Shown here: in pieces, positions 12,869 through 60,131 of the stretch
Layout: each line of letters begins with the position of its first letter
Position numbering within the stretch: position 1 is the stretch's first letter
Origin: an uncultured virus (IMG/VR IMGVR_UViG_3300042808_000075)
Taxonomy: Duplodnaviria; Heunggongvirae; Uroviricota; Caudoviricetes
Direction: 5' to 3' (one strand)
Virus record (IMG/VR): IMGVR_UViG_3300042808_000075
Length of the DNA stretch: 64,000 nucleotides
The notes under the pieces: model-generated
The model's input: only the letters and a program-made list of their open reading frames with translations
What the model was told of the DNA's origin: nothing
Database searches by the model: none
Translations under genes and position numbers: made by a program

Positions 12869-13519
12869 TTATTTGCAAAGTTTTGTGTAAATAGTAAAAA
12901 CTTCATTTACATTTCTTGTTTTTGCAAAAAGCATTTCAGAAAAAACACTGTTTTTATGTTTGTCGAAAAACTTTTCCATGTTTTCTTCATTTTCAAGAGG
13001 TTTTTCGGCATTCATAATTACTTCAAACTCTTGTTGTAGTTTGTCGATATATTGATTGGCTTGATCTCTGGTATCAAACAATAAATATTCAGATTCATTC
13101 AAAAAGGTTAATTTGTTTTCTTTGGTAATCGGTAAGCCGCTACTCATTGAAGAAGAAGAAAGTTTGATGTAATATTTCCAAGCGGCATTTTTCCAACCTT
13201 CTATAGTTGTTTTTCTGATTTGTTCGCCGTATTTTTCATTGATAAATTTAACGGGAGAAAGTGAAGATTGACCTAAAAAGATATTCTTTTTTTGCAAAAG
13301 TGCATCGGCAAAGCCATCACGAACAGCTTTGATAGCAATATCTTCCTGACCTGCAAATAACGAATATTTAATAATCGATGTTTCTTTTTCCATGTAAGGG
13401 TTAAAGATTTCAAAGTATTCATTCCCAAAATCATCAGAAATGATTTTTTTTGAGAAACCAAGTTTTGGGAAATATGCAATTTTTTCGCCGTTTACATTTG
13501 TTGTAATTTCAAATTTCAT
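12869..13519 (-). CDS. Hypothetical protein, paralog of 18928..19560
   Basis: Shared GQED.AIKA..DGFAD and PVKFI.EKYG motifs. Confidence 0.85.
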   Translation of the reverse strand: MKFEITTNVNGEKIAYFPKLGFSKKIISDDFGNEYFEIFNPYMEKETSIIKYSLFAGQEDIAIKAVRDGFADALLQKKNIFLGQSSLSPVKFINEKYGEQIRKTTIEGWKNAAWKYYIKLSSSSMSSGLPITKENKLTFLNESEYLLFDTRDQANQYIDKLQQEFEVIMNAEKPLENEENMEKFFDKHKNSVFSEMLFAKTRNVNEVFTIYTKLCK

Positions 13520-16714: not shown

Positions 16715-16882
16715 TTAATTATTGTAAAATAATTTTGCTTTTAATTCAAAAATCATACGTGGTATTATTTGCAATTTTGGTGAATTTAAAAAATAATAAT
16801 AAATGTACTTGTGATGGATTTTATCAATTTTGCAAAACCTATTGTTAATTTTGTAAATACTATTGATTTTTATTTGTTCCAT
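16715..16882 (-). CDS. 55-aa hypothetical protein
   Basis: MEQIKINSIYKINN...; AAGGAAG RBS. Confidence 0.55.
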   Translation of the reverse strand: MEQIKINSIYKINNRFCKIDKIHHKYIYYYFLNSPKLQIIPRMIFELKAKLFYNN

Positions 16883-17000
16883 TTATCTACTTCCTTTTTT
16901 GTTTTATTTTTACAATTCATTAGTAAAATAAAAACGGGGAAATAACCCCCGTTTTTAGTATCATTACATCTCATAATTTTTTCATATTTTGATTGATTTG

Positions 17001-17042
17001 CTACAGGAAAGGAATTTTCCCGAAGCGCAACAGTTTGCGCAT
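17001..17042 (-). CDS. 13-aa peptide MRKLLRFGKIPFL
   Basis: AAGGAG RBS, ATG..TAG. Confidence 0.7.
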   Translation of the reverse strand: MRKLLRFGKIPFL

Positions 17043-17120
17043 ATGTTTCATTCTCCTTTTTTGCATGATTGAAAATTTATTATCTCATATATCTCTATTT
17101 TTCATATTTAAATTGATTCG

Positions 17121-17162
17121 TCAGATAAATGGAATTTTACCAAGGCGTAACCGTTTGCGCAT
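17121..17162 (-). CDS. 13-aa peptide MRKRLRLGKIPFI
   Basis: AAGGAGG RBS, ATG..TGA; synonymous changes relative to the other copies. Confidence 0.7.
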   Translation of the reverse strand: MRKRLRLGKIPFI

Positions 17163-17237
17163 GTTTTGTCCTCCTTCTTTACTTGATTAAATTTTTCATC
17201 TCATATATCTCTATTTTTTCATATTTTGATTAATTCG

Positions 17238-17279
17238 CTACAGGAAAGGAATTTTCCCGAAGCGCAACAGTTTGCGCAT
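17238..17279 (-). CDS. 13-aa peptide MRKLLRFGKIPFL
   Basis: AAGGAG RBS, ATG..TAG. Confidence 0.7.
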   Translation of the reverse strand: MRKLLRFGKIPFL

Positions 17280-17379
17280 ATGTTTTCTCCTTTTCAATGA
17301 ATTTAATATTTTTTCTTGCAATTTGTTATTAAAGCAATTTTATTTTCGCTGTAAAAATCTCCTTTAACCCTTTACCTGA

Positions 17380-17412
17380 TTATTTTATGATGTAGCACAT
17401 GGTTTTGTGCAT
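17380..17412 (-). CDS. 10-aa peptide MHKTMCYIIK
   Basis: AGAAAGGTGGTGAT RBS just after the promoter at 17440-17468. Confidence 0.5.
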   Translation of the reverse strand: MHKTMCYIIK

Positions 17413-17482
17413 TTGCAATCACCACCTTTCTATATTTTAATTATATCATTTTTATTTAATTTTGTAAAGTTTTTTTTTATTT

Positions 17483-18121
17483 TTAGGCAACTTTTGCTTT
17501 GCGACCACGTTTTTTAGGTGTGCAATCAATATCAACAAATCCAAGGTCAACGGCGATTTGTTTAACTTGCAGAGAACCGTATTTTTCAACAACTTGTTTG
17601 GTCAAATCGTAGAAGTGAATAAACAAGTCGTTAACGGTTTTTTGGTCAGCGTTTTTGCACAAGTGATTATATACTGCAACAGTATTCACTTTACCGTTTT
17701 TGCCTACTTCCAAGCCATCCAGTTCAGCAGGAATAATATCCACTTGCTTCACTTGTTTAACTTTGGTAGCTTTTCTGCCACGTTTGCCGGGAGCAGGTAC
17801 AAGACCCATTTCAATTGCGATCTTTTTAACTTCTTTCAAAGAGTTAATGGCTTTTTTAGTGTTTTCTTCTGCATCAAACCAATCTTTCAAAGCTTGACGT
17901 GCTTCTGCGGTATCACCGTTTTGGAAAACTTTTTCCAATGTTTCAGCGATAGAGTGAACACTGTTGTTCACAGGTTTGCGGCCTCGTTTTTGCGGTGTTT
18001 TGTTGATTTTAGCTTCAAGTTCTGCTACCTTTGCGCGAAGCATTTCTGCTTCATGTGTAGGACAAAGACCGATTTCGTTATCCTTTTTCAAGAATGCTCC
18101 ACATACTGTACATTTTTTCAT
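17483..18121 (-). CDS. Zn-finger, coiled-coil and RGRK basic-motif protein; putative DNA-binding; paralog of 59070..60131
   Basis: CxxC-x10-CxxH; three KRGRK motifs; IPAELDGLEVGKNGKV domain. Confidence 0.85.
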   Translation of the reverse strand: MKKCTVCGAFLKKDNEIGLCPTHEAEMLRAKVAELEAKINKTPQKRGRKPVNNSVHSIAETLEKVFQNGDTAEARQALKDWFDAEENTKKAINSLKEVKKIAIEMGLVPAPGKRGRKATKVKQVKQVDIIPAELDGLEVGKNGKVNTVAVYNHLCKNADQKTVNDLFIHFYDLTKQVVEKYGSLQVKQIAVDLGFVDIDCTPKKRGRKAKVA

Positions 18122-18215: not shown

Positions 18216-18428
18216 TTAGTTTTTATTTTGCTGTCTTTTTTCGTTTGCAAAACTTTTTGCATCAATATAGTTTTCAAATAGATAAATGTATTCATCATAA
18301 TCTTTTTCTGCTTTGTGAAAAAAAATTGGTTGGTATTCATCAGGAACGAACACATTTGCTTCAACTTTACCATCATGAAAAAATTTAACTGATACACAAT
18401 GTTGTTTTTAATTTTTTGTGGGTTTCAT
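18216..18428 (-). pseudogene. 71-codon gene with an in-frame TAA at codon 7
   Basis: Promoter, RBS and ATG, then MKPTKN*KQHCVSVKFFHDGKVEAN...YDEYIYLFENYIDAKSFA in one frame. Confidence 0.7.
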
Positions 18429-18531
18429 TTTTTTCTCCTTTGTTTTTATTTTATAATTAATTATAACATATATATTTAAATTTGTAAATAAAAAACACCC
18501 CTTTAATTAAAGGGGTGTTTTAAAAGCACTT

Positions 18532-18900
18532 TTAATAAAAATCGCCATTTTTTCTTGATGTAGCATATTCAGATTGTTTTTTAAAATATTCGCGAAACAT
18601 AACTGCTTCAGAAGAATTATCGTTTAATGGAATCCAATCAATGACTGATTCGTGATCTCCATGACCGTCCCGATAATGAGAAATGATTTCGCCGCATTCA
18701 CTTTGCCAACTATAGAAATCTGTTAAAATACCTTTTTCATCTTTAACTTTTTCCCGATATGGAGTGCAAATTTTAATAGACAATTCATTTTCAAATCTGT
18801 CACTTGCAATGATACAAATGAATTCTTTATTTGATTCATAACCTTTATTTGTTTTACTTTTGATTTTACATGTTGGAAATGGTTTTTGATTTATGAACAT
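18532..18900 (-). CDS. Hypothetical protein
   Basis: 122 aa, RBS. Confidence 0.8.
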   Translation of the reverse strand: MFINQKPFPTCKIKSKTNKGYESNKEFICIIASDRFENELSIKICTPYREKVKDEKGILTDFYSWQSECGEIISHYRDGHGDHESVIDWIPLNDNSSEAVMFREYFKKQSEYATSRKNGDFY

Positions 18901-18927: not shown

Positions 18928-19560
18928 TTAATAAATCATGTTTGCTGTAATTGAAAATTCCCATATTTTTGTTTTTTTACCTGCAATCATGTTTAAAAAA
19001 ACATGATTATTATATTTTTGAGCAAATTTGATTATATTTTCTTCTGTAATTGTTTGTAATTCTTGTTCAAGTTCTTGTTCCAATGTGGAAATAAATTGTT
19101 CAGCATCTTGTCTAGTATCAAAACATAATTGTTTTGTTTTTGTTGGACTTAATATCAATTGCATAGTTTTAAAAGTGCTAGTATTATTTTGAGTAATTGG
19201 AATAGAATATATACCATCTTCAAGGTTGACTAATAAATTAATGCAATAATTGAATTTTACATTTTCAAAGTTTTCTAAAGTTTGTTTTCTAACTTTCTTA
19301 CCATATTTCTCATCAATAAATTTAACAGGCACTAATCCACTACAATAATTGTCGTTTCTTTCAATTAAACCATCTGCAAAACCATCAATAATAGCTTTAA
19401 TAGCTTGATCTTCTTGACCAAAAACAAACGTTGTGTCTGCATAGTGGTTTATGATTTCAAAATACTGATTACCGTTACTATCGGTTTCTATGTTTGCTTT
19501 ATGATTAAAATCAACAAATAAAACATGATCATTTTTAATTTCCAAATTATTGTTTTTCAC
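18928..19560 (-). CDS. Hypothetical protein, paralog of 12869..13519
   Basis: Shared motifs; GTG start. Confidence 0.85.
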   Translation of the reverse strand: MKNNNLEIKNDHVLFVDFNHKANIETDSNGNQYFEIINHYADTTFVFGQEDQAIKAIIDGFADGLIERNDNYCSGLVPVKFIDEKYGKKVRKQTLENFENVKFNYCINLLVNLEDGIYSIPITQNNTSTFKTMQLILSPTKTKQLCFDTRQDAEQFISTLEQELEQELQTITEENIIKFAQKYNNHVFLNMIAGKKTKIWEFSITANMIY

Positions 19561-32431: not shown

Positions 32432-33649
32432 TTATTTGATAAAAGGTTTGATTAATTTTGCTCTTTGTTCTCTTACAAAATTAGCAATTTGTTCATTCTT
32501 TAGATGTTCAGGAATATCAAACTTTGTGTTTCTAATTACAGTTGCCATAGCGTTAAGATTATGAACTAGCGGTTCTACATTGTTGCCACCATCAGCCAGC
32601 ATAATCAAAGCCAATCCTTCTGTTTTCAAAGGTGATCTATCAGCTTTAATAATCATATCTACTATTTTGCTAGGTTTTTTAGTTTGTACTTTCATGTGAA
32701 GTTCACAAGCAATCATGCCAGCTTTTAACCATTTATTTTGCAAAGTAAATTCTTTGTTCCATTTTATCAGTTCTTCAATACCTAAAACATCATGCCCGAT
32801 ATGACTAGGCCAAAGTTCTTTAGGTGTTGCAGTTTTGCCAATATCATGAATAAGTGCCGCAAAACGAATAGCTATATCATTGGTTTGCTTTGCTACTTCA
32901 TCCAAAACAATCATCGAATGATTGTATACATCACCTTCGGGATGAAATTTGATATTTTGATCGATGCCAATCATTTTTTGAATCGGAGGAAAGATATCAA
33001 GCAAATCAGCTTGTTTCAAAACATCAAAAAACAAACTAGGCTTTTTAGTATTTAGTGCTTTTTCCAATTCAGTTACAATTCTTTCTTTGGATTCCAATAA
33101 CAATTCTTCTTTAGTTTGTTTCATAAGGTCAATAGTTTTTTGTGATACAGAAAAACCAAATTGGCTTGCTTGTCTTGCCACTCTTAAAGAGCGCACAGGG
33201 TCATCCTTAAAGAATTCAGAAGTTGCATTGATGATTCTGTTTTCAATATCTGTTTTGCCATTGTAGGGGTCAATCAGCTCGTTAGACAGTACGTGAATAG
33301 CCATACTATTCATTGTAGTATCTCTTCTGAATAAATCATCATGAATATTGATAGAAGTATCAAAAGTTACTTCAAATCCTTTATAACCAGTGCTGGTTTT
33401 AATTTCGCGTCTAGCAAAAGCAATTTCACATTGTTTATTGTTTACTGATAAATTGAAAACAGGAAATGATTTACCTATCAATTCAGCGTTAGGAAAAATG
33501 CTTTGAAATTGTTCTTTGGTTAAACCAGTTACACAATAATCTTTATCTTTAGGTGTTTTATTTAAAAAAATATCTCTGACAGCACCACCAACAAGAAAAA
33601 ATTCGCCGCCATTTTTATTTATAATTTCTGCCATTTGTTTTTCATCCAT
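32432..33649 (-). CDS. cca: CCA-adding tRNA nucleotidyltransferase with HD domain
   Basis: VGGAVRD..DKD, DLFRRDTTMNSMA, DDPVRSLR, HPEGDV..H, IHDIGK. Confidence 0.9.
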   Translation of the reverse strand: MDEKQMAEIINKNGGEFFLVGGAVRDIFLNKTPKDKDYCVTGLTKEQFQSIFPNAELIGKSFPVFNLSVNNKQCEIAFARREIKTSTGYKGFEVTFDTSINIHDDLFRRDTTMNSMAIHVLSNELIDPYNGKTDIENRIINATSEFFKDDPVRSLRVARQASQFGFSVSQKTIDLMKQTKEELLLESKERIVTELEKALNTKKPSLFFDVLKQADLLDIFPPIQKMIGIDQNIKFHPEGDVYNHSMIVLDEVAKQTNDIAIRFAALIHDIGKTATPKELWPSHIGHDVLGIEELIKWNKEFTLQNKWLKAGMIACELHMKVQTKKPSKIVDMIIKADRSPLKTEGLALIMLADGGNNVEPLVHNLNAMATVIRNTKFDIPEHLKNEQIANFVREQRAKLIKPFIK

Positions 33650-40797: not shown

Positions 40798-41985
40798 TCA
40801 CGAAGGAACAGATAATCTTACTTTATGCTTATGGAATAATTGTTTTAAATCTTCACGCAGATAAGGTAAAAAATAACTAGGTTTATCTTTCATTGCCACC
40901 AATATTTTTTCTTTGATATCTTGTTCGTTAGTGAATAATCTCAACGCTAGGTCGCAAATAAATGTTCCTTGGTGTGGTAACATTAACTTCATTACTGATA
41001 AATTTTCTACAACCAATTTTCTGTCTTTTTCTTTTTTGATTAGATCATAAACAATATGACTTTGATGTAATATATATAAATAGTAATTATTGATTAATTC
41101 TTCCGATTCATTAAGTAAATTAACTATATTGGTTAATTTAAGTTCATTGGCATATGAAATAGTATCATCTTTGTTTTGGTTAACAATTAGATCATAAACA
41201 ACATTATGATTTAATTGTGTAACGATTTTGTGTCTATTTAAATACCAAAGTGTTTTTATTTTATATCTTTCGCCATTTTTCATAACAACAACAACACCTT
41301 CATGGTTTTCCCAATTGTTATGCAAATCATAAAAGAAATCATGCATGTTGGTATCAACATTGATTTCATCAATTTTTAATTGGGTAGGGAAATCTTTAAT
41401 CAAAGAAATATCTAGATATTCACCTGTTTTAATATGTCTAATTGCAATCAATTTTAAGGTAGGTATTTGATAGTTAATTACAATTCGACAATCAGTGCTT
41501 GAATATTCAAAAATAGGAGTATACCCTTTATTAATATAGTTTTTACAAAAATTAATAAAATCATTGTAAAAATGTTGTTGTTTTATCCAATCATTAAATC
41601 TGGTTACTACTGATGAAAAAGGTGAAGTTTTTGTTTTAAAATAAACAATATCATTTAACATAAAAGGGGTAATCATACTTCCATCCATTTTTTCCAAAGT
41701 TTGAAGAACATTTTCCCATTGAATACTTTCAAATTGTGTTTCTTCTCTTTCGTTAACATTAAAAAACTTATGAAAAGGTCGGCAAATACATTCACCTGTA
41801 TCCATACGAAAAGTAATCCCACGTGCTTCTTTTGCCATATCAGAATCAAAAGTAGTAGGAAATTGGACTAAATAACTAATTACTCCAATATTAATATTAT
41901 CAACAATATGTTCAATAATATTAATTTCTTCTTTATTTTTTAAAATATCTTCAAATTGTTTAATGTTTGTAATAATAGGAAACAT
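40798..41985 (-). CDS. T4 Rnl1-like RNA ligase
   Basis: EARGITF, RPFHKFFNVNE, motif I EKMDGS, IFEY, EGVVV, YKIKT. Confidence 0.9.
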   Translation of the reverse strand: MFPIITNIKQFEDILKNKEEINIIEHIVDNINIGVISYLVQFPTTFDSDMAKEARGITFRMDTGECICRPFHKFFNVNEREETQFESIQWENVLQTLEKMDGSMITPFMLNDIVYFKTKTSPFSSVVTRFNDWIKQQHFYNDFINFCKNYINKGYTPIFEYSSTDCRIVINYQIPTLKLIAIRHIKTGEYLDISLIKDFPTQLKIDEINVDTNMHDFFYDLHNNWENHEGVVVVMKNGERYKIKTLWYLNRHKIVTQLNHNVVYDLIVNQNKDDTISYANELKLTNIVNLLNESEELINNYYLYILHQSHIVYDLIKKEKDRKLVVENLSVMKLMLPHQGTFICDLALRLFTNEQDIKEKILVAMKDKPSYFLPYLREDLKQLFHKHKVRLSVPS

Positions 41986-45238: not shown

Positions 45239-46180
45239 TTAAATAAACTTTAACAATTGATTGGCTAAATGACCGCCAATATTATAAACAATTTGTAAAT
45301 CTTTTTTTTCTAACAATTTAAGTTCATTTTCGTAATCAATTTCAAAATCTTTTTTTGCATCATCCATGATAAAAGAGATATATTCTTTCATTTGTGCTTT
45401 ATTATTAATAGTACCAATTTTGCTAAAAGCACTGTTAATACGGTTTTCGTTTAAATATGTTTTAAAAACACTGTTTAATTGGATTAAATTTTCATCGATT
45501 TCGATAATAACTTTTTCTTTTATTTTTTCTTCAAATTTACTATGTTTAATTTTTAAAACAATATTTTTCCCCCCGTTATTAATCAGCCAATTATCAAAAG
45601 GCTTTACCACTACACCTTCGGCAAAATTATTTCCCATAGGGTTGAAGGTAGTTATAAAAACCGGATTAAATTTAACAGCTTCATCAATACCTTTAACAAT
45701 GGCTAACAATTTTACCAACATGTTTTCAAATCCATTATCGCAGAAAAATTTTCGATATTGTTTTGGTGATTGCATAACATCATTCACTTTAAATCCAATA
45801 ATACGCATAGCTGATTGATTAGATTGATTAAAATACTTAATGCCTTTACTTAATTTACCACCAAACAATTCAAAATACGTTGTTAATTTAACATTATTAT
45901 CAATAGAATATTGTTTTAAAAAATCAAATAATTGTTTTTCTTCTGGTTGTTCAATGGTTTGCCAAAGTGAAAAAAATGGTGTATCAGGCGTTAAAACCAT
46001 TTCACGACTAAAAAATTCAATTTCACCATTTTGAACAGTTGCTTGAATATTTGCTCCATGCATTTTTTCTTCAATAGCAAATTCAATGTCAATTAATTGG
46101 GGAAATTCGTTTTTGAAAATTTGCAATTGATTTTTATTATCAATTCGTACAATTGAAGGAAATGAATCATGATTAGTCAT
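45239..46180 (-). CDS. Rnl2-family RNA ligase
   Basis: Motif I EEKMHGAN, FELFGG, AEGVVVKP, LKIK..KFEE, YLNENRI.S..SKIG. Confidence 0.88.
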   Translation of the reverse strand: MTNHDSFPSIVRIDNKNQLQIFKNEFPQLIDIEFAIEEKMHGANIQATVQNGEIEFFSREMVLTPDTPFFSLWQTIEQPEEKQLFDFLKQYSIDNNVKLTTYFELFGGKLSKGIKYFNQSNQSAMRIIGFKVNDVMQSPKQYRKFFCDNGFENMLVKLLAIVKGIDEAVKFNPVFITTFNPMGNNFAEGVVVKPFDNWLINNGGKNIVLKIKHSKFEEKIKEKVIIEIDENLIQLNSVFKTYLNENRINSAFSKIGTINNKAQMKEYISFIMDDAKKDFEIDYENELKLLEKKDLQIVYNIGGHLANQLLKFI

Positions 46181-47035: not shown

Positions 47036-47169
47036 TTAATAGCCTCCATTTTTATATTTATAACTTCACATTTTTAAAAACAAAAAAAGAAAAGCACTTC
47101 TAGCTTTTCTTTTTATTTTAATATAATTTTATCACAATGTCAATATGTGTACTTTATAAATCAAGGTAG

Positions 47170-47184
47170 CTAATGCCAATGCAT
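47170..47184 (-). CDS. Minigene MHWH
   Basis: AAGGAGG, 8 nt spacer, ATG CAT TGG CAT TAG. Confidence 0.45.
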   Translation of the reverse strand: MHWH

Positions 47185-47221
47185 ATACATTTCCTCCTTT
47201 TTATTATATATGTTTTTTTAT

Positions 47222-47230
47222 CTACTGCAA
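47222..47230 (-). CDS. Minigene TTG-CAG-TAG
   Basis: Leader AGAAAGAAGGAGATTCCA; promoter TTTACA-17-TGATACAAT. Confidence 0.45.
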   Translation of the reverse strand: MQ

Positions 47231-47312
47231 TGGAATCTCCTTCTTTCTTTTGTTTATTTTCTATATCTTTATTGTATCATATGTGTTTTATTTTGTAAAT
47301 GTTTTTTTAATT

Positions 47313-49144: not shown

Positions 49145-49591
49145 TTAATCTTTTGCTCCGCATTCTGACAGCATTGCATCACTTACAGCATCCATACCAG
49201 CATTGAAATCTAATTGGTTTTGAAATTCAGCATATTCCATTAAAAACATTTTGTATTTATTAGAAGATTTCCATTTTAATAAATCGTCACTAGAACATGC
49301 TTGTTCAAATATTTCTATATATTTAAGCATCATGTCATGTCCATTTATTACTTTTTCTTCCAATCCAATACATTGAATTTGATAATCAAAAGAATTCACA
49401 AAATCAATAAAATCATTATATAAAATGTCATTTAACTTTTTGCCATATTTTAAAGCATAAAGGTTATATAACAAAGCACCTTCTGTTTCATTTGAGCAGT
49501 AAGACCATATTTTTTGTTTGCCATTCACACATAATCTAATTTGCCAATGTTTAAATTTTTTATGCTATGTTACCCCTTTGTATTTGTTCAT
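49145..49591 (-). pseudogene. AP2-domain-like protein with in-frame TAG at codon 9
   Basis: MNKYKGVT*HKKFKHWQIRLCVNGKQK...EGALLYNLYALKY; RBS precedes ATG at 49591. Confidence 0.7.
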
Positions 49592-50402: not shown

Positions 50403-50678
50403 TTATGTTTGTTTTTTCAATGCGCTAATTTTTGCTAATACTGCATTACCTGTTCCAGTAGGTTGGAACTTGTTGTGAAGGTATTCAATTTGCAACATTG
50501 CTTCTTCTAATAATTCTTTAACGTCAAACATTTCTTTTTGCGCTTGTTCTACCAGTAAAAGACGTTCTTTCCTTTCTTCACATTCTTTACATTTTCTAAT
50601 AACATGGCATTCACAATTGTATGTGTCGCTGTTATATGCAGAAATCAACTCTTCTGTTTTTACTAATAACATTTTCAT
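50403..50678 (-). CDS. Hypothetical protein
   Basis: 91 aa; cassette. Confidence 0.8.
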   Translation of the reverse strand: MKMLLVKTEELISAYNSDTYNCECHVIRKCKECEERKERLLLVEQAQKEMFDVKELLEEAMLQIEYLHNKFQPTGTGNAVLAKISALKKQT

Positions 50679-59069: not shown

Positions 59070-60131
59070 TTATACATTAACTTCTTTAACCTTACGACTA
59101 CGCTTTTTAGCATCAAAATCGATTTGCAAATATCCAAGTTCAACAGCCGTTTTCTTCATGGCAAATGTACCAAGTTTTTTAATAACTACCGCTGTTAAAT
59201 CATGGAAGTGAATAAACAAGTTGTCAATAATTTGTTTTGTTTCTTCATTAACTACTTCTGTATTAAATGCATTTGTTTTGCAAAGGAAATTCCAAATAGT
59301 TCGGTTGCTTACTTTACCATTTTTGCCTACTTCCAAACCATCCAGTTCAGCGGGAATAACATCCACTTCAATTTGTTTTCTTGGTTTTGCTTGACGTACT
59401 TTAGGGGTAAACTCTTCCCCTAGCAAACCAAGTGTAATTGCTTGTTCTTTTAATTTGGCATTCACATAGCGTTCAAAAACATTTCTTGTTTCGGGTTCAA
59501 AATTGCTAAACAATGCTTTAATTTGTTCATCGTTCAATTCATTGCTTGAAACAAATTTTTTGATACGGTTAACAGTTACTTTCCCACGACTAGAAATCTC
59601 TAGTCCGGTTAACACCTCTGGAATGACAACAGGAGCCATAGGTTGTTTTTCTACTTTAGGTTTTCTTTGTTTCGGTTCTTTTGGTACTTTGTTTGGGTCT
59701 GCTGGTCTGCCACGTCTAGCAGGTTGTGGAATCAATCCCATTTCGATGGCAATTGGCTTTACTTTTTTCAGCATGGCAACGGCTTTAGCTGCTTTTTGCG
59801 AAGCATCAAACCAATCTTTAAGTGCTTGCCTTGCTTCTTCAGTATCCCCACCTTCAAATACTTTAGCAATAGATAGGCTAATACTTTTTACACTATCAGA
59901 AATAGTTTTTCTACCACGTTTTTTATTGGTGGGTTTTTTGTTTTTCAGGTCATTTACTTCAGTTTCCAATTCAATTACTTTTTCTTTAAGTGTAGTTACT
60001 TCTACTTCCAGTTCTCCTACTTTGGTTTCAAGGTTTTCCACTTTTACTTCTGCTTCATGTGCTTGACACAGGCCGCTTGTATTGTCTTTTTTAAGGAATG
60101 CGCTACATTTACTACATCTTTTAGTTTCCAT
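59070..60131 (-). CDS. Zn-finger, coiled-coil and AT-hook-like protein with duplicated C-terminal domain; paralog of 17483
   Basis: CxxC-x10-CxxH; KKRGRK, RRGRP; two IPxxLxGLE..GKV domains. Confidence 0.85.
   Translation of the reverse strand: METKRCSKCSAFLKKDNTSGLCQAHEAEVKVENLETKVGELEVEVTTLKEKVIELETEVNDLKNKKPTNKKRGRKTISDSVKSISLSIAKVFEGGDTEEARQALKDWFDASQKAAKAVAMLKKVKPIAIEMGLIPQPARRGRPADPNKVPKEPKQRKPKVEKQPMAPVVIPEVLTGLEISSRGKVTVNRIKKFVSSNELNDEQIKALFSNFEPETRNVFERYVNAKLKEQAITLGLLGEEFTPKVRQAKPRKQIEVDVIPAELDGLEVGKNGKVSNRTIWNFLCKTNAFNTEVVNEETKQIIDNLFIHFHDLTAVVIKKLGTFAMKKTAVELGYLQIDFDAKKRSRKVKEVNV

Follow-up and report, generated by a model that had tools for sequence, protein, structure and literature searches.

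A promoter-to-terminator unit with three tandem copies of a candidate 13-codon peptide gene in the genome of an uncultured virus

The 64,000-nucleotide stretch of DNA analysed here, called the window throughout, comes from an uncultured virus of the Caudoviricetes (IMG/VR record IMGVR_UViG_3300042808_000075); its GC content lies at 20–31% and nearly all of its genes are on the minus strand. The locus of interest, on that strand, opens with a consensus early promoter and closes with a strong terminator; between them lie a 10-codon open reading frame (ORF), here named ORF0, and three tandem units, each made up of a 7-nt Shine–Dalgarno match, an ATG, 13 codons and a stop, with a unit length of 117–120 nt (Table 1). 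ORF0 is separated from the first unit by a spacer of ~100 nt. The ATGs of the three micro-ORFs (ORF1, ORF2 and ORF3) lie at 17279, 17162 and 17042, and their spacings of 117 and 120 nt place them in one frame. A sequence-only reading of the window had described this layout, with a promoter, a terminator, a 10-amino-acid ORF and three units each possessing its own Shine–Dalgarno sequence and ATG, and every one of these elements was found at the position assigned to it, on the minus strand. A degenerate pattern written for the 13-residue peptide matches exactly the three micro-ORF sites in the window and nothing in 100 shuffles.

Table 1. Features of the micro-ORF locus and its immediate downstream neighbour, in the direction of transcription
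Feature	Positions	Strand	Remarks
Early-type promoter	17440..17468	−	TTTACA-17-TATAAT with TG extension; 11 of 12 matches
Shine–Dalgarno stretch GAAAGGTGGTGA of ORF0	17419..17430	−	a few nt after the likely transcript start, as judged from the −10 hexamer
ORF0, 10 codons + TAA, MHKTMCYIIK	17380..17412	−	
ORF0 start-codon hairpin	17395..17410	−	5 pairs, −5.9 kcal/mol; register as in ORF1 and ORF3
Orphan 7-nt Shine–Dalgarno match	17359..17365	−	no ATG 4–11 nt downstream; possibly a relic
Tandem array	16976..17313	−	period 117, 2.6–2.9 copies, 75–79% matches (Tandem Repeats Finder)
Unit 1 Shine–Dalgarno 7-mer AAAGGAG	17287..17293	−	7 nt upstream of ATG
Micro-ORF 1, MRKLLRFGKIPFL + TAG	17238..17279	−	
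ORF1 start-codon hairpin	17262..17277	−	6 pairs, −8.1 kcal/mol
A-rich block after unit 1 stop	17202..17237	−	counterparts after units 2 and 3 ~90% alike
Unit 2 Shine–Dalgarno 7-mer AAGGAGG	17170..17176	−	7 nt upstream of ATG
Micro-ORF 2, MRKRLRLGKIPFI + TGA	17121..17162	−	hairpins lost
Unit 3 Shine–Dalgarno 7-mer AAAGGAG	17053..17059	−	10 nt upstream of ATG
Micro-ORF 3, MRKLLRFGKIPFL + TAG	17001..17042	−	42 of 42 nt identical to ORF1
ORF3 start-codon hairpin	17025..17040	−	6 pairs, −8.1 kcal/mol
Intrinsic terminator	16929..16957	−	12 pairs (5 G-C) + T run; −16.3 kcal/mol; closes the unit
Downstream 55-aa ORF	16715..16882	−	good Shine–Dalgarno sequence; TTTACT present, −10 hexamer missing; weak match to phrog_2283, E 1e-3

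Shine–Dalgarno core matches of 7 nt occur 86 times on the gene strand of the window and 7 times on the opposite strand. Those on the gene strand lie 4–11 nt before 67 distinct ATGs, of which 61 start an ORF that is 49 amino acids (aa) or longer. Of the six that do not, three belong to the micro-ORFs, two to genes interrupted early by an in-frame stop, and one to an ORF of 4 codons. Among the long ORFs, the longest Shine–Dalgarno match is most often 7 nt (41 of 81). The initiation region of unit 3 shows 95–100% identity over 17–20 nt to the starts of the ORFs at 18900 and near 50672–50678. As for termination, 101 ORFs end in TAA in 81 cases, TGA in 14 and TAG in 6. We also considered recoded stops; with TAG or TGA read as sense, hardly any coding sequence is gained, which leaves the standard code with both codons as ordinary stops.

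The promoter of the unit belongs to a large set. Near-identical promoters (TT[TG]ACA-N14-TGnTATAAT) are found 52 times on the minus strand of the 64 kb and twice on the other, further examples lying at 18488–18460, 16685–16657 and 15685–15657, and 34 of the 52 immediately follow a terminator hairpin of −7 kcal/mol or stronger. The micro-ORF unit is itself a promoter–terminator cassette of this kind, so that the micro-ORFs fill a slot that elsewhere holds protein genes. Phages of the T4 type possess comparable cassettes, termed PeSL, in which strong sigma-70-like early promoters are joined to stem-loop terminators and which flank the small orphan genes of variable regions (Arbiol et al. 2010, PMC2839356, as excerpted). 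Here too, a strong early promoter fused to a stem-loop terminator is repeated across a region of small orphan genes. The likeness concerns the context rather than the micro-ORFs and is one of architecture; the motif in the window differs, being TTTACA-17-TGnTATAAT accompanied by Firmicute-type ribosome-binding sites.

The evidence that bears on the peptide comes from a comparison of the three copies. The coding sequences of ORF1 and ORF3 are identical, while ORF2 differs from them at 11 of 42 nt. Only three residues are changed (L4R, F7L and L13I), and the stop is switched from TAG to TGA at an unchanged position. The sequence-only reading had described the changes in the middle copy as mostly synonymous or conservative with TGA replacing TAG in place; this holds, although F7L was missing from its list and the residue changes amount to three. 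Codon position 3 takes six of the nine coding changes (binomial p 0.042). In 200,000 trials of random substitution the ORF remained intact with at most three residue changes in 0.06%; given nine changes in codons 2–13, at most three residue changes resulted in 2.1%, and the observed BLOSUM score was reached in 0.4%. When ORF2 was set against the outer copies, NG86 gave a pN of 0.12 and a pS of 0.59, hence a dN/dS of ~0.11, a coding-like value that is noisy over 13 codons; dN/dS had been named beforehand as a check on the peptide, and it was taken here on the paralogous copies within the locus. Translated in all six frames, the copies show 3 differences over 14 positions in the micro-ORF frame and 7–9 over 14–15 in the other five. 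Since these substitutions also abolish, in copy 2, both hairpins that can form in each outer unit, RNA structure cannot explain why the start, the frame, the stop and most residues were kept.

From the anatomy of the locus, from start signals that are so specific and from a middle copy that has diverged as coding sequences do, we infer that the three micro-ORFs are most likely translated in actual fact and that their peptide is under selection. Selection on the peptide had been suggested from the first look at the DNA, and the specific Shine–Dalgarno sequences, the coding-like substitutions and the stop switched in place lend it support within the locus. The interpretation that we favour, giving it about an even chance, is that of an early unit with a translated 13-codon peptide gene in three copies, the peptide being the selected product. 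The locus is a self-contained early transcription unit, running from consensus promoter to intrinsic terminator, of an uncultured AT-rich phage-like genome, and its ~510-nt RNA would carry four mini-cistrons, a diverged one of 10 codons followed by the three copies of 13 codons. The selected element would be a basic 13-residue peptide, M-R-K-x-L-R-x-G-K-I-P-F-[L/I], whose yield would be multiplied by the presence of three cistrons per transcript. Because the peptide contains Gly and Pro and offers no amphipathic helix, it may well be made in abundance and work within the infected cell, occupying as a short, extended ligand the binding groove of an abundant host protein, and the start-codon hairpin present in three of the four cistrons would probably serve to throttle or time initiation. 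A more specific proposal, tentative and on the whole unlikely, is that a free-standing 13-residue linear-motif peptide from the three-copy early transcript jams the docking groove of an abundant host machine, such as a chaperone, a cell-division protein or a translation factor, with the start-codon hairpins timing the burst as a translational operator.

Several classes of known small peptides were compared with the predicted product. The staphylococcal PSM-alpha operon consists of tandem genes with their own ribosome-binding sites on one transcript; it encodes exported membrane-lysing amphipathic helices of ~20–26 residues and long went unannotated. The locus resembles it in having very short peptide genes in tandem, each with its own ribosome-binding site, on one transcript, whereas its peptide has 13 residues including Gly and Pro, is phage-borne and shows no sequence relation. 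An amphipathic membrane-active helix was rejected: copies 1 and 3 have a helical hydrophobic moment of 0.54, which 18% of shuffles reach, and copy 2 has one of 0.25, which 75% of shuffles reach, and the membrane-active effector that had been envisaged from the sequence thus finds no backing. The shortest precursors of SHP-type signals have a basic start and a hydrophobic end and count at least ~17 residues. The micro-ORF peptide resembles them in its two ends but is shorter, and its 13 residues leave no room for a Sec signal. Concerning signalling of the RRNPP type (arbitrium, Phr, SHP), no TPR or receptor family was found among 30 proteins scanned with Pfam (the 27 minus-strand ORFs that reach 200 aa and lie entirely in the window, plus three neighbours), and the neighbours have no PHROG function. 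The I-P-F end bears a possible resemblance to known docking tails. In SSB, the C-terminal tip is formed by an acidic run and then I/L-P-F as the last residues; a mimic of this tip was dismissed, the peptide being basic (net +4 and +5) with one extra residue after Phe.

A number of observations weigh against a selected peptide as the main product. Three of the four mini-ORFs, ORF0, ORF1 and ORF3, have a GC-rich hairpin whose first base is the G of the AUG. At −8.1 kcal/mol, that of ORF1 and ORF3 exceeds anything seen in the 101 ordinary genes (minimum −4.5) and should lower initiation, which is a poor fit with simple dosage amplification, the reading proposed from the sequence alone, although three copies behind one strong early promoter would be consistent with it. 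None of the ordinary genes reaches −5 kcal/mol, as the hairpin of ORF0 does with −5.9. ORF0 keeps the hairpin register through one compensatory change of a G-C to an A-U pair, yet it encodes a different peptide, and this points to a constraint at the RNA level. It is probably a diverged copy of the 13-codon ORF, to judge from the 18 nt after its ATG, 11 of which match those of ORF1 while the best of the 101 ordinary genes attains 7; aligned to the units locally and with gaps, the wider region around ORF0 gave no significant result. Copies 1 and 3 also use codons that are rare in the window, namely CGC (8.5% of Arg codons), CTG (5.6% of Leu codons) and GGG (7.9% of Gly codons), and over the first 24 nt they are GC-richer than all 101 ordinary genes. 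The two copies agree at synonymous sites as well, in contrast to their flanks. Furthermore, the A-rich block that follows the stop is ~90% conserved in copy 2, compared with 74% for the ORF, although AT-biased mutation could explain part of this excess over GC-rich synonymous sites. Some stop read-through or suppression is possible, two other genes of the window having early in-frame stops. Finally, this is a single locus with effectively one informative paralogue comparison over 13 codons and no homologue found on which to repeat it, and the proposed mode of action is without direct support.

Many of these same features would also be expected if the RNA itself were the functional product, an explanation that we consider unlikely but keep as the main rival. 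The locus would then produce a stable early transcript with four modules of a Shine–Dalgarno sequence plus an AUG hairpin, which would present an RNA-binding protein or 30S subunits with an array of decoys or operators, and the ORFs would be incidental or would only keep ribosomes on the RNA. GC-rich cores in so AT-rich a genome, a start-codon hairpin stronger than in any of the 101 genes with a register common to ORF0, ORF1 and ORF3 and one compensatory pair, the complete identity of ORF1 and ORF3 and the conserved post-stop block all agree with it. In addition, a cassette at ~47080–47310 holds only 2- and 4-codon ORFs and so indicates that RNA-only cassettes may exist in this genome. Across the hairpins of ORF0, ORF1 and ORF3, 93% of the cells are paired in the common register, versus 13–53% with the partners slid. 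However, a single pair makes up the covariation, and 174 of 500 shuffles equal it. The fold of the whole operon (z −1.23) is not significant against shuffles, nor are those of units 1 and 3, which form two hairpins each (−14.6 kcal/mol, z about −1.2 to −1.35). In unit 2 the hairpins are abolished and the fold (−6.2 kcal/mol, z +1.29) is worse than that of its own shuffles; the earlier statement that each unit can fold is therefore true of units 1 and 3 and not of unit 2. RNAalifold on the three units reports 0 compensatory pairs, and Rfam has no match at the gathering threshold in the whole window, with only sub-threshold matches, which lie over the terminator. A tRNA-like nature of the units was tested and dropped. 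A further objection is copy 2, which without a hairpin retains its Shine–Dalgarno sequence, ATG, frame, stop and 10 of 13 residues. Copy 2 is thus the peptide without the hairpin and ORF0 the hairpin without the peptide, and together they make the locus a compact test case for selection at the level of the peptide as opposed to the RNA. We take the pair as the mark of a peptide gene to which a hairpin controlling initiation has been added, and the dual-function RNA suggested at the first look at the DNA may apply.

Could the array be devoid of function? It might represent a young, drifting tandem duplication of a gene start, comprising the Shine–Dalgarno sequence and the first codons, in a recombination-prone cassette region. 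We regard this as rather improbable. The unit is indeed an orphan without any homologue, its upstream neighbour has a same-contig paralogue as its only relative, the region is one of shuffled terminator–promoter modules in which other cassettes have broken or empty frames, and the initiation region of unit 3 is, as mentioned, nearly identical to those of two real genes. Under drift, however, the survival of an ATG, a frame, a stop and 10 of 13 residues through 11 substitutions would be a rare outcome, as the random-substitution trials indicate. Moreover, all three Shine–Dalgarno cores are intact within flanks that bear indels, and both an intact consensus promoter and a strong terminator have been kept.

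No relatives of the three-copy unit are present in any collection searched. Neither blastn with the unit nor megablast with 10 kb gave a match to phage records. The degenerate peptide pattern has no match in viral contigs or in species genomes, and in metagenome contigs it returns only the window itself; the homologues in phage and metagenome sets by which the peptide was to be verified were thus absent from both the pattern and the DNA searches. With the N-terminal half plus a Shine–Dalgarno sequence, 14 viral loci were obtained, 12 of them with ORFs of 40–159 aa and two with ORFs of 27–28 aa; none has a G-K-I-P-F end and none is in tandem. The C-terminal half plus stop occurs at 2 loci, neither with a start codon. 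A tandem pattern of MRKxLR gave one viral locus, with unrelated 27-aa ORFs, and at least 121 loci in genomes; among the matches listed for the latter, 91 have both ORFs stopping after three codons and none has a G-K-I-P-F-like end. These tandem ATG-CGN-AAR genome loci, which among the matches listed are mostly from Bacteroidota with a spacing of ~100–120 nt, look like arrays of RNA genes or repeats and appear unrelated to the micro-ORFs. The combination of hairpin and Shine–Dalgarno sequence is found at no fewer than 117 viral loci, all of them single among the matches listed, and one that was inspected lies within an ORF of the opposite strand. An antisense ORF of 65 aa, used as bait for miscalled relatives, found nothing. 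Within the window, no copy of the peptide motif in other ORFs was supported, and the unit showed no complementarity or similarity to the remainder beyond promoter and initiation regions. A full-text literature search for the five-residue C-terminal motif yielded no paper on phage or bacterial peptides, as judged by title.

The position of the array upstream of a terminator and a further gene raises the question of a regulatory leader. In trpL-type leaders, a very short ORF with its own Shine–Dalgarno sequence lies upstream of an intrinsic terminator and a gene, and the same order of short ORFs, terminator and gene is found here. Translation of the micro-ORFs would in this case set the read-through of the terminator into the promoter-less 55-aa gene. 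The latter has a Shine–Dalgarno score at the 59th percentile of real genes in addition to its weak PHROG match, and its expression may depend on terminator read-through: where a promoter would usually follow the terminator, as 34 of the 52 promoters do, there is only TTTACT and no −10 hexamer. A leader function nevertheless appears quite improbable. No competing antiterminator was found, the best fold with the terminator blocked having −20.0 kcal/mol versus −34.2 with the terminator formed. The last stop precedes the terminator stem by ~44 nt, there is no regulatory codon run, and three copies would be unnecessary. A classical attenuator was accordingly rejected on account of the alternative fold being 14 kcal/mol worse, the missing codon run and the three copies.

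Two further alternatives are very improbable. Loci of the toxIN type consist of a promoter, non-coding tandem direct repeats of ~35–45 nt whose RNA is processed to monomers, a terminator and a promoter-less toxin ORF, and phage mimics of the antitoxin exist. The architecture here is alike, with tandem direct repeats between promoter and terminator followed by a promoter-less ORF, so that a type III toxin–antitoxin-like locus or a phage pseudo-antitoxin, in which the tandem RNA repeats neutralise an endoribonuclease toxin, had to be considered; it was rejected because neither the 55-aa ORF nor its neighbours match a ToxN/AbiQ-type or other defence model (Pfam, PHROGs and PADLOC; CptN and TenpN were likewise without a match to the 55-aa and 143-aa ORFs), and because units of 117–120 nt are about three times too long and bear Shine–Dalgarno sequences, ATGs, stops and a coding-type divergence.

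The other, to which we attach equally little probability, is that the micro-ORFs are translated as minigenes, acting as in lambda bar through the sequestration of rare tRNAs as peptidyl-tRNA, with the peptide not being the relevant product. With lambda bar and synthetic minigenes they have in common a phage-borne, strong Shine–Dalgarno sequence before a very short ORF and rare codons near the start: CGC occupies codons 2 and 6, and codon 4 is CTG or CGG, each making up 5.6–8.5% of its synonymous family. On the other hand, copy 2 replaces several rare codons by common ones while conserving the residues, and CGT, which shares its tRNA with CGC, accounts for 20.6% of the Arg codons in the phage genes. 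Hungry codons near the start behave in a minigene-like manner, but the reported effect fades with ORF length over 3–8 codons (PMC2490762, as excerpted). Minigenes of 2–8 codons thus contrast with the present ORFs, which have 13 codons and a conservation at the level of residues.

If the micro-ORFs do encode a selected peptide effector, they would constitute the smallest multi-copy phage effector gene known, possibly born inside a shuffling promoter–terminator cassette. To our knowledge, almost no 13-codon genes have been described in phages. Genes of this size escape annotation; should the present ones prove real, effectors much smaller than the customary cut-off lie concealed in early phage regions, and the number of copies on a transcript would be one means of setting their dose. 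As a single orphan locus in an uncultured genome, any generalisation must await relatives or expression.

The neighbouring proteins have no relatives in viral contigs. For the 212-aa protein encoded immediately upstream (17483–18121, −), a search of 5.8 billion proteins brings up, besides the protein itself, only a paralogue of 41% identity from its own contig. This paralogue has 353 aa (59070–60131, −) and contains an internal duplication of the C-terminal module; both proteins possess an N-terminal Cys-x2-Cys...Cys-x2-His motif and repeated K-R-G-R-K stretches. The slot following the 353-aa paralogue is occupied by an unrelated small gene and no array. A 143-aa neighbour shows weak matches in Bacillus phages, and one region inspected there was without synteny.

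Elsewhere in the window, the Pfam scan identified an ArdC-like protein, a CCA-adding enzyme, RNA ligases of both T4 types, a radical SAM protein and a methyltransferase. The CCA-adding enzyme and the two T4-type RNA ligases (32432–33649, 40798–41985 and 45239–46180, all −) form a tRNA-repair gene set within 14 kb, and no tRNA gene was found in the window.

Other cassettes show unusual frames. The one at ~47080–47310 (−) extends from promoter to terminator, and its 2-codon and 4-codon (MHWH) ORFs have Shine–Dalgarno sequences; it could represent a gene for a small RNA or a cassette that has been emptied. At 18428–18216 (−), an own promoter and a 7-nt Shine–Dalgarno match are followed by MKPTKN, an in-frame TAA and then 63 open codons, for which there is no Pfam match. 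The early stop could reflect a nonsense mutation, a site of read-through or a fault in the assembly. In a similar way, the ORF at 49591–49145 (−) begins with MNKYKGVT and has an in-frame TAG at codon 9 before 139 open codons, with no significant Pfam match. With in-frame stops this early in two of ~100 genes, it may be asked whether suppression occurs in this phage.

Lastly, the ORFs at 12869–13519 (216 aa) and 18928–19560 (210 aa), both on the minus strand, look like paralogues by eye in unaligned translations, sharing the stretches ...YFEI.N.Y... and ...QED.AIKA..DGFAD.L...

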